Part shown: positions 11,288 to 24,213 of the stretch, piece after piece | Position numbering within the stretch: position 1 is the stretch's first letter | Layout of the letters: each line of letters starts with the position of its first letter | Source of the DNA: an uncultured Candidatus Saccharibacteria bacterium | GTDB lineage: Bacteria; Patescibacteriota; WWE3; UBA101185; UBA10185 | Length of the DNA: 54,829 nt | Direction of reading: 5' to 3' | Assembly (NCBI GenBank): GCA_964615625.1 | Contig: CAZTQT010000005.1 | Coordinates: forward strand, 1-54,829 | Position numbers and translations under genes: made by a program | Notes under the pieces: generated by a model | Seen by the model: the letters and a program-made list of their open reading frames with translations, nothing else | The model's database searches: none | Told to the model about the DNA's origin: nothing

Positions 11288-11365
11288 TTAGACTAAACTA
11301 GGTATAGAAACTGTAGCAGGACAAGTCATAAAATAGTTACAAACTTCGTCCACTATGCTCGACCA
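11288..11365 (-). other. Detached C-terminal coding segment of the recombinase (rejoined on excision)
   Basis: Reads in frame from the shared TGG TCG core as WS-SIVDEVCNYFMTCPATVSIPSLV*. It has no start codon of its own. Confidence 0.6.
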
Positions 11366-11561
11366 ATGAATTTTGGCTACCGATGTAATTGGTAGACAAA
11401 ATTTATTAGTGGGTGGTAAGGAGTTAACCTAGGCTTTAGCCGTGGTTCCACTTTTGATGCTATAGTGCGGAGCACTATGGCTCAAATGCAAGCTTTGCTT
11501 TGTCCGCCCACCCCGACCAATGAATTTTGGCTACCGATGTAATTGGTAGACAAAATTTATT
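11360..11561 (+). repeat. 48-bp perfect direct repeat (11360-11407, 11514-11561) flanking a structured mini-element with an 18-bp tRNA-Pro 3' copy
   Basis: CGACCAATGAATTTTGGCTACCGATGTAATTGGTAGACAAAATTTATT occurs twice and is itself a hairpin. GTCCGCCCACCCCGACCA at 11502-11519 equals 173-190. Confidence 0.95.
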
Positions 11562-15946: not shown

Positions 15947-15960
15947 GACGCTAACGGGAG

Positions 15961-16155
15961 TTTGCTGGTGGGCGAGAGAGGACTCGGTCACAAGTCCACG
16001 TATCTCTACGTCACTCCGTTCCTAGAGCTTCGTGGCTCGCGACCCCCTCTCGCTCGCCTTCGGCTCACTGCGAATTATTCTCGTCCTCTCTCATAAGCGA
16101 AAAATATATCGGCATAAAGCCGACACATTTTTGCTGGTGGGCGAGAGAGGACTCG
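15961..16155 (-). repeat. 26-bp direct repeat of the tRNA-Leu 3' end enclosing a 143-bp structured mini-element
   Basis: TTTGCTGGTGGGCGAGAGAGGACTCG at 15961-15986 and 16130-16155. Confidence 0.92.
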
Positions 16156-16217
16156 AACCTCCACCCTTGCGGACACGGTCCTAAGCCGTGCGCGTATGCC
16201 AATTCCGCCACTCGCCC
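16135..16217 (-). tRNA. tRNA-Leu(TAG)
   Basis: 83 nt: acceptor GGGCGAG/CTCGCCC, anticodon arm CACGG-CTTAGGA-CCGTG, long variable arm, encoded CCA. Confidence 0.97.
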
Positions 16218-16360
16218 TTAAACTTCAACTTTTGAGTAACTTAGATTATATACTAACTGAGAAAATGATAAAAATTTCACAAACAACTTACCAAATCCTT
16301 ATACATAAATATTCAAACTATCTCAGCAAAAACTCAGAAAACTATATATAATTGTGCCCA

Positions 16361-23902: not shown

Positions 23903-24164
23903 AGGCTGTTAGCTCCTGTTGGAGCGAAGCGACAACCGATCCTAACCAACCTAAAGAATATAGAAATATATTTAAATGAGCCAGTGGCGAATAAGTAGTA
24001 AGAAAATAAAACAAGCAAAAGTACAGAAGAGTTAGGAGAGTCGGTTAGAGCGCCACATTGACATTGTGGAGGTCATTGGTTCGCAAAATTCCTGCATCGC
24101 TACGCGATGTAAAAGGAAGCGCAGCGAGTGAAACGAGCGAGCAAGCTTTTATTACCGCCCACCA
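23903..24164 (+). pseudogene. Second tRNA-Val copy in three pieces, split by 126-nt and 70-nt insertions
   Basis: 23904-23915 matches 23775-23786 at 11/12, 24042-24083 matches 23790-23831 at 41/42, and 24154-24164 matches 23840-23850 at 11/11. Confidence 0.8.
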
Positions 24165-24213
24165 AAAACCTACCATCACTTCAACAAACCTAAAAATCAT
24201 CTATAATAAAATT

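Follow-up and report, generated by a model that had tools for sequence, protein, structure and literature searches.

The stretch analysed here, 54,829 nucleotides (nt) from the genome of an uncultured Candidatus Saccharibacteria bacterium (contig CAZTQT010000005.1, positions 1 to 54,829) and referred to throughout as the window, carries a tRNA-Leu(UAG) gene followed on the same strand by a folded unit that ends in a copy of the tRNA tail and that we call the cassette. Coordinates are those of the whole window, and both the tRNA and the cassette are read on the minus (tRNA) strand. The tRNA gene, with its CCA encoded, lies at 16135-16217 and was identified by ARAGORN and by the Rfam tRNA model (55.2 bits). 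Promoter-like hexamers (TTGGTA-18-TATCAT) are located upstream of it at 16265-16294, on a consensus match alone and in a region that holds 2 such matches against 2.0 expected. Directly after the CCA, the repeated unit opens with hairpin P0 (16097-16134), which in the minimum free energy (MFE) fold has a 5' A-run and a 3' U-run, and a terminator scan marks the terminator-like core of this hairpin at 16109-16123. On the tRNA strand AUAUUUUU follows the stem, the scan puts the T run of the hairpin on the plus strand, and RNAfold pairs the A-run with the U-run; P0 may be a plain long hairpin.

Downstream of P0 comes an arm, GAGAGAGGAC (16083-16092), that is an inverted copy of tRNA nt 59-68 and forms the 5' strand of helix P1. 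Junction strand J12 (GAGAAU, 16077-16082) follows, and its first GA stands opposite G57-A58 of the duplicate described below as a tandem G.A that extends P1. The next part is the P2 module (16047-16076), made up of a 3-bp helix X (UUC:GAG), an internal loop GCA/GA and a hairpin, and after it the P3 domain (15984-16046), where GGGGUCG...UGACCGA surrounds a variable module that is of type alpha in this copy (CCACG:CGUGG plus CUCUA:UAGAG). The last part is a direct duplicate of the tRNA 3' end (15961-15986; C56 to A76, plus GCAAA), within which 15974-15983 is the 3' strand of P1. This duplicate is an exact 26-nt direct repeat (15961-15986 is identical to 16130-16155, at a spacing of 169 nt), and the cassette unit measures 169 bp, from the base after the tRNA-Leu CCA at 16134 down to the next CCA at 15966. 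All strings listed in the initial annotation of this DNA, including the duplicate, were located on the minus strand as described there. What that annotation had overlooked is that the arm pairs at 10 of 10 positions with 15974-15983 of the duplicate.

Folding of 180 nt gives an MFE of -76.4 kcal/mol (z = -5.9), and none of 200 shuffled sequences was as stable. The cassette is in addition a GC island, with 50-60% GC against approximately 34% in the surrounding DNA; together, the 26-nt repeat, the fold and the GC island exceed chance. Several other identities were considered and set aside. The region contains just short overlapping open reading frames (ORFs), not a credible coding region; the upstream tRNA is complete, as it would not be for a split or permuted tRNA; copies of the unit are too many for a transfer-messenger RNA (tmRNA); and a hammerhead or other small ribozyme is without an Rfam match, and the junction strands do not fit its consensus. 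In an Rfam scan of the window, only tRNAs reached the gathering score, and matches admitted at E values up to 10 consisted of a weak RtT match and chance matches, with zero ribozyme families.

The window copy is one of many. Within its own genome (725 kb in 30 contigs), BLAST detected 5 loci including the one in the window, each located 3' of a different tRNA gene. A covariance model trained on 19 copies, from which the window copy was left out, scored the window copy at 62.6 bits and found 9 copies in the same genome, 9 of 9 lying just 3' of tRNA genes. Across the taxonomic family, BLAST matches were present in 17 of 86 genomes, whereas an exact gapped pattern searched across the order gave 54 matches in 29 of 89 genomes, compared with a single match for the reversed-pattern control. 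At the level of the class, the pattern was present in 31 of 134 genomes. Distribution is patchy even within the genus, where 7 of 13 genomes carry the pattern, and in an even, phylum-wide sample the covariance model detected the cassette in 8 of 151 genomes, 3 of them from other classes. In total, 63 distinct copies were collected, 51 of which have a same-strand tRNA no more than 300 nt upstream, and 25 anticodons are represented. The order of parts is constant: tRNA, spacer, arm, GAGAAU or UCGAAU, the conserved core and, starting at the CGA of the T loop, a duplicate of the tRNA 3' end. The P2 and P3 modules come in several exchangeable types and combinations, and at one locus (L028) the unit forms a tandem array of 1.3 units. 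Judged from these comparisons, the cassettes constitute a large, well-supported structured family that is absent from Rfam, and a literature search that did not cover subscription journals found no description of such cassettes in Patescibacteria. One copy, behind a tRNA-Ala (L049), precedes the start of a 23S rRNA match by approximately 270 nt and may sit in the spacer of an rRNA operon.

Comparison of the copies supports a three-way junction, formed by P1 (arm plus duplicate), the P2 hairpin module and P3, in which GGUCG...YGACC closes the second module. In a MAFFT alignment of 19 copies, 90.2% of cells are paired versus 75.7% after shuffling, and changes on both sides are seen in 20 of 29 pairs. 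When all 63 copies are aligned to the model, 90.8% are paired versus 68.0% in shuffled alignments and 35-41% in slid controls, 26 of 28 pairs show compensatory changes and the covariation score is 0.602 versus 0.186 for shuffled data, all of which are upper bounds for reasons given below. Double changes occur at 9 of 10 P1 pairs in this alignment. The P3 helix is 93.5% paired, with 7 of 14 pairs compensatory, and over columns 93-107/180-195 of the 63-copy alignment it is 95.6% paired, with 12 of 13 compensatory and one G.U kept in 59 of 63 copies. Two copies in the same genome as the window (C1:87014-87119 and C4:57737-57843) have GGGGCCG...GUGGCCGA in P3 instead of GGGGUCG...GUGACCGA, a compensatory change of U-A to C-G.

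The same alignment speaks to the strand on which the structure is formed. Because G.U oppositions far exceed A.C oppositions (114 versus 35 overall, and 86 versus 7 without P1) and one P3 G.U is kept in 59 of the 63 copies, the tRNA-sense strand carries the fold. The two bases that follow the arm face the two bases that precede the GU of the duplicate as GA/GA in 54 copies, UC/GA in 6 and UU/AA in 1; P1 is therefore lengthened by tandem G.A or by Watson-Crick pairs. The spacers, arm included, also have a recurring form, as 29 of 37 fold at -13 kcal/mol or better and their length is near constant; it is the design of the spacer that is conserved, and not its sequence. These spacers belong to the 37 of 46 parsed copies in which a tRNA lies upstream and the spacer does not exceed 110 nt. 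When they were compared all against all, similarity across different tRNAs was confined to proline tRNAs; C4 and C11, two copies in which the same hairpin can be recognised by eye, were outside this set. The initial annotation had suggested that the unit functions as a folded RNA co-transcribed with the tRNA. A strand-specific covarying fold is, within the reach of sequence evidence, well borne out by the 63 copies, with the G.U excess outside P1, while the two textbook motifs named there are not.

The first of these motifs is a kink-turn (k-turn), an RNA element composed of a C stem, a 3-nt bulge, tandem G.A pairs and a second stem. Inside the P2 hairpin, the string CGC-AGU-GA-GCC-GAA-GGC-GA-GCG (16051-16072) presents these parts in the right order, and was described as a textbook example. 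If it were one, the CGC-AGU-GA...GA-GCG segment would kink and bind an L7Ae-type protein, alongside a GNRA-capped hairpin. Consistent with that idea, RNAfold selects the k-turn register in the MFE structure of the window copy, and tandem G.A is common in the module. However, the copies as a group argue against it. P2 can be parsed in 60 of the 63 copies as X - G(N)A - hairpin - GA - X', where the N of the G(N)A loop is G in 36, C in 19, U in 4 and missing in 1. Among the 60 hairpins, 19, including that of the window, are compatible with a simple k-turn register, 22 have an inner tandem G.A without any possible register for a 3-nt bulge, and 19 are plain GC hairpins. The inner tandem G.A is thus present in 41 copies and missing from 19, although a k-turn would call for its conservation among homologues, and only 19 copies pair it with a usable bulge register, so that 41 of 60 cannot form a k-turn. 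Pairing in the C-stem register reaches 72.4% in the alignment of 19 copies, with 0 of 4 pairs compensatory, whereas the overlapping X helix is 100% paired and 2 of 3 pairs are compensatory. A minimal k-turn pattern (3-bp stem, 3-nt bulge, GA, 3-bp hairpin, GA) occurs 10 times on the two strands of the window, as compared with 8.8 +/- 3.0 in 100 first-order Markov shuffles, which is chance frequency. Nor did the expected partner come to light: the L7Ae family (PF01248) has 0 matches in the genome, which is 94.29% complete, and the same search was positive in 7 of 14 control genomes.

The second motif, a GNRA-capped hairpin, corresponds to the string ACGUA-GAGA-UACGU at 15998-16011, within the P3 domain. 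The ACGUA/UACGU pairing is formable in the window copy, but it is not the conserved pairing, being broken in 7 of 11 alpha-type copies (pair 101:112 is present in 4 of 11). In these copies the 3' columns of the hairpin have another partner, CCAMG, to which they pair in 11 of 11 and 10 of 11 cases with compensatory changes. We regard the k-turn interpretation, together with its GNRA-capped hairpin, as very unlikely; a k-turn confined to the type A subfamily is conceivable, though nothing speaks for it. The conserved non-Watson-Crick parts of the cassette are, instead, the 3x2 loop G(N)A/GA and the bulge-free tandem G.A at the junction. A hairpin of the P2 type is also found elsewhere in the window, at 24104-24167 on the plus strand (GC-GCA-GC-GA-GU-GAA-AC-GA-GC-GA-GC), inside a dead tRNA-Val copy. 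This hairpin gives a 12.1-bit partial match to the model, and the same kind of module recurs in a further cassette family, which lies behind tRNAs for Glu, Phe and Ile.

The relationship of the cassette to its tRNA is specific. In every copy the arm differs with the tRNA, being complementary to the T-stem and acceptor 3' strand of the tRNA behind which it lies. P1 is accordingly built from an arm that inverts tRNA nt 59-68 (nt 54-65 or further in pristine copies) and a partner that is a direct copy of nt 56-76, and in UCGAAU copies the arm and junction are the exact reverse complement of the tRNA from nt 54 on. At 23 positions where the T-stem of the tRNA is not Watson-Crick paired, the arm has the Watson-Crick complement of the 3' strand in 16, the 5' base of the tRNA in 4 and neither in 3; because 16 of 23 are Watson-Crick complements, the arm was derived from, or selected against, the tRNA 3' strand, and not copied from the 5' half. 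At L093, the tRNA has a variant T loop, UUCAAGU, which is reproduced in both the arm (..GGACUUGAA) and the duplicate (CAAGUCC..). Direct repeats were analysed in the 46 parsed copies, 39 of them with an upstream tRNA, and are typically 21 nt long. Of these 39 repeats, 18 stop exactly at CCA, 5 run 1 nt beyond it, 8 run further, and 8 are shorter or diverged. At L015 and L031 the duplicated tail is split between its T-stem and acceptor strands by a nested hairpin element of approximately 40 nt. At L011 and L029, units specific to tRNA-Leu(UAG) follow a sequence that ends in ...GGCCCACCA and in which ARAGORN finds no tRNA; this preceding sequence may be a second array unit or the end of another RNA.

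Duplication of a tRNA 3' end is the classical signature of integration, and the 26-nt copies could in principle be the attL and attR of an island at the tRNA 3' end that has been almost wholly deleted, leaving 143 nt without function. The genome does contain two large serine recombinases, and within it an island at a tRNA-Pro has a copy of the 3' end of that tRNA 11.3 kb away. We nevertheless consider a scar highly improbable, for the same core of approximately 100 nt accompanies tRNAs of 25 kinds and every one of its helices shows compensatory changes, only 143 nt separate the repeats with no recombinase gene beside the cassette, and the tRNA-tailored arm is left unexplained. At the far end of the serine-recombinase island, 11350-11560 (plus strand) holds a third kind of unit before the tRNA-Pro tail copy, and the same 41-nt hairpin with A-run and U-run both precedes this unit and follows the tail copy.

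The reach of the duplicate also invites a retro-derived origin, in which the 3' end of a mature tRNA served as primer or template and was recopied up to the T loop, as at a retroviral primer-binding site. Compatible with such an origin are the extent of the duplicate, which spans the T loop to the mature end and stops exactly at CCA in those 18 of 39 copies, the mirroring of the variant T loop in both copies at L093, and the presence of one reverse transcriptase gene in the genome. Repeats in Escherichia coli likewise reproduce the ends of mature stable RNAs, those of tRNA and of 5S rRNA (PMC8144298). Yet tRNA genes here encode CCA, so an origin from DNA fits equally well; the reverse transcriptase is unlinked to any cassette, its neighbor being a type I restriction specificity gene; and we could devise no priming scheme that yields the inverted arm. 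A retro-derived origin is accordingly a decidedly unlikely one. The reverse transcriptase ORF at G000 C12:2343-3743 (L086) encodes 466 amino acids, overlaps the end of the type I restriction specificity (HsdS) gene and has a defence-type look.

Comparison of related genomes points to turnover of the cassettes. The Leu and Asp copies in the same genome as the window have cores that are 98% identical, yet in five sister genomes tRNA-Leu(UAG) and tRNA-Asp are without a cassette, and where sister genomes do have a cassette at the same tRNA it is built of other module types. No clean insertion boundary could be read at tRNA-Leu(UAG) or tRNA-Asp in these five genomes, as the flanks are non-syntenic. 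The core identity, the bare sister tRNAs and the module swaps would together reflect turnover, by either transposition or gene conversion between resident copies. In sister genomes G034, G035 and G040, the same ORF precedes tRNA-Leu(UAG), with the tRNA gene in reversed orientation, and the right flank is found elsewhere; contigs of a related strain (X19/X20) join 15955 to 16255 on opposite strands. The tRNA-Leu(UAG) locus is a point of rearrangement.

Such turnover is what would be expected of non-autonomous mobile DNA, akin to repetitive extragenic palindromic (REP) sequences, or to miniature inverted-repeat transposable elements (MITEs), or moved as folded single-stranded DNA (ssDNA), that is brought in trans to the T loop or 3' end of tRNA genes and in which the hairpins are a DNA signal and not an RNA. 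The near-identical Leu and Asp cores missing from sister genomes, the patchy spread in the genus, the shuffled modules and the small hairpin elements nested in duplicates at L015 and L031 are all in keeping with this, and folded ssDNA also tolerates strand-specific G.T pairs. Against it, the cassettes have no linked transposase and no linked partner of the Y1 or Xer type, and the one tyrosine recombinase nearby, on C6, looks Xer-like; no known transposition chemistry would combine nt 56-76 copied directly with nt 54-68 copied in inverted form; and the end of the unit coincides exactly with CCA, where the mature RNA ends. We therefore judge mobile DNA of this sort to be unlikely. More generally, no recombinase or reverse transcriptase was found linked to cassettes in this genome, which has one reverse transcriptase, two serine and two tyrosine recombinases, and the nearest recombinase matches are at C5:971-1237 and on other contigs.

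Tail copies are common in this genome, where CCA is encoded in 37 of 38 tRNA genes. For at least 13 of the 38, the final 17 nt recur exactly on the same strand within approximately 350 nt downstream, and since only some of these loci belong to the family described by the covariance model, several cassette families coexist. Cassettes would be found at about a quarter to a third of the tRNA genes of the genome.

On balance, we think it probable that the unit in the window is one member of a multi-copy family of tRNA-linked cassettes whose RNA is transcribed with the tRNA, processed, and maintained and spread by recombination, a reading that we favor by a modest degree when all of its steps are taken together. 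The cassette would be transcribed from the tRNA promoter by way of read-through of P0; read-through would be required because the terminator-like hairpin intervenes between the tRNA and the folded part. It may then be released as a small stable RNA by the enzymes that form the tRNA 3' end, a step proposed because the cassette ends in the same ...NCCA tail held in a helix, and one that would parallel the proposal made for the tRNA-linked repeats of E. coli. Persistence and spread could proceed by recombination anchored on tRNA sequence and loss by recombination between the two direct copies, while cores might be homogenised or swapped between copies and the complementarity of the arm maintained by templated correction. 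As to role, two possibilities seem to us about evenly matched: the RNA would be a passenger, whether selfish or neutral, or it would mimic the tRNA tail or serve as a processing module.

A number of points weigh against this interpretation. This DNA occurs in 12 studies, and no RNA run is listed among the sequencing runs that contain the stretch; a hairpin with the terminator-like look of P0 would limit co-transcription. (Four runs were examined; X19 and X20 are probably DNA, X23 has a tRNA-like piece only and X24 has nothing, which gives no evidence either way on transcription.) The proposed steps leave unexplained how a new arm and duplicate originate at a new tRNA. The copies are kin and the 63-copy alignment was fitted to the structure of the model, which makes its figures upper bounds, and relatedness likewise causes the shuffle controls to overstate significance. 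P1 ranges from 0 to 12 contiguous bp and is short or broken in many copies. At the 3' end, 8 nt (4 from the acceptor and ACCA) also stay outside the helix, and because of this P1 is not a canonical substrate of RNase P or a canonical minihelix substrate. Finally, the cassette is dispensable, because sister genomes have tRNA-Leu(UAG) and tRNA-Asp bare.

Diverged copies behind 25 tRNA species provide comparative leverage beyond that offered by E. coli alone. They reveal which parts are constrained, namely both strands of P1 (arm and duplicate), the G.A pairs at the junction, the G(N)A/GA loop and P3, and which are free modules, and they indicate that the 3' strand of the tRNA is the template of the arm. 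They also show such passengers behind a considerable fraction of the tRNA genes of a minimal genome, and they call for caution in annotation, in that units of this kind are not to be taken for att scars, tRNA pseudogenes or k-turn RNAs.

Several known systems share features with the cassette. Like the attachment (att) sites of islands and prophages in tRNA genes, it has a direct repeat of the 3' part of the tRNA from the T loop. It differs from them in the 143 nt without genes between the repeats, in its covarying core and in its inverted arm. The mascRNA, the tRNA-like structures of plant viruses and the Mauriceville retroplasmid use tRNA-like 3' ends as tags for processing or replication. 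What the cassette has in common with these is an RNA other than tRNA whose ...NCCA tail is held in a helix, although it is tRNA-like over its last 21 nt only, and neither the Rfam tRNA model nor ARAGORN detected a tRNA shape in it.

More extensive parallels are found with the tRNA-linked repeats (TLRs) of E. coli, which comprise RtT (RF00391; rttR at tyrT) and the repeats rrA, rrB and rrF behind 5S rRNA. PMC8144298 reports 22 repeats at ten loci, whose 3' 18-19 bp are identical to the end of the upstream tRNA or rRNA gene, and describes these repeats as known since 1978 without an accepted function or origin. According to the same paper, the 5S-linked repeats are transcribed through terminator T1 and are proposed to direct 3' processing. 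Both the TLRs and the cassettes are located directly 3' of a stable-RNA gene on the same strand, both end in a copy of the tail of the upstream RNA (18-19 nt in E. coli, 21-26 nt here), and tandem units occur in both. A hairpin with an A-run and a U-run lies between gene and repeat in both cases, as in E. coli rrnB, where the 5S end is followed by the T1 hairpin with its A- and U-runs, then by the core, the duplicate and T2. In E. coli K-12, the tyrT units have an arm, GGGGAAGGAU, then GAGAA, and end in the tRNA tail; this arm is the reverse complement of tRNA-Tyr nt 54-69 with a UC-to-GA change, as in the cassettes, so that an arm complementary to the copy and followed by GAGAA is common to the two. 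The covariance model ranks the 4 tyrT units right after the true copy, that of the window (22.2, 19.3, 17.6 and 13.6 bits), at full length and in register, whereas it detects no arm or GAGAA in the rrnB repeat (rrB).

The two nevertheless differ at the level of sequence and in their cores. RtT was the sole suggestive match of the window in the permissive Rfam scan, at 19.2 bits and an E value of 0.29 where the gathering score is 45, and among 20 other loci it matched 1, at 29.3 bits, again below gathering, which does not amount to membership at the sequence level. In the cassette the core takes the form of a three-way junction containing the G(N)A/GA loop and GGUCG...GACC, and the cassettes belong to a different phylum, where they are far more pervasive (9 model matches in a 725-kb genome). 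The window element is thus TLR-like in architecture and junction design while standing outside the Rfam RtT family. A bolder proposal, which we put forward tentatively and consider rather unlikely, is that the cassettes belong to one broad, old class of elements, extending from enterobacteria to Patescibacteria, that copy themselves onto the mature 3' ends of stable RNAs. The members would have in common an inverted stretch of tRNA (nt 54-68) carrying the UC-to-GA change, then a folded core, then a direct stretch (nt 56-76) ending in CCA, and the tRNA tail would act as template or primer of spread, or the RNA would mimic the acceptor end as a decoy or processing module. Short of that proposal, the cassettes appear to be closest in kind to the RtT repeats of E. 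coli, as a second, unrelated-looking family built on the same plan.

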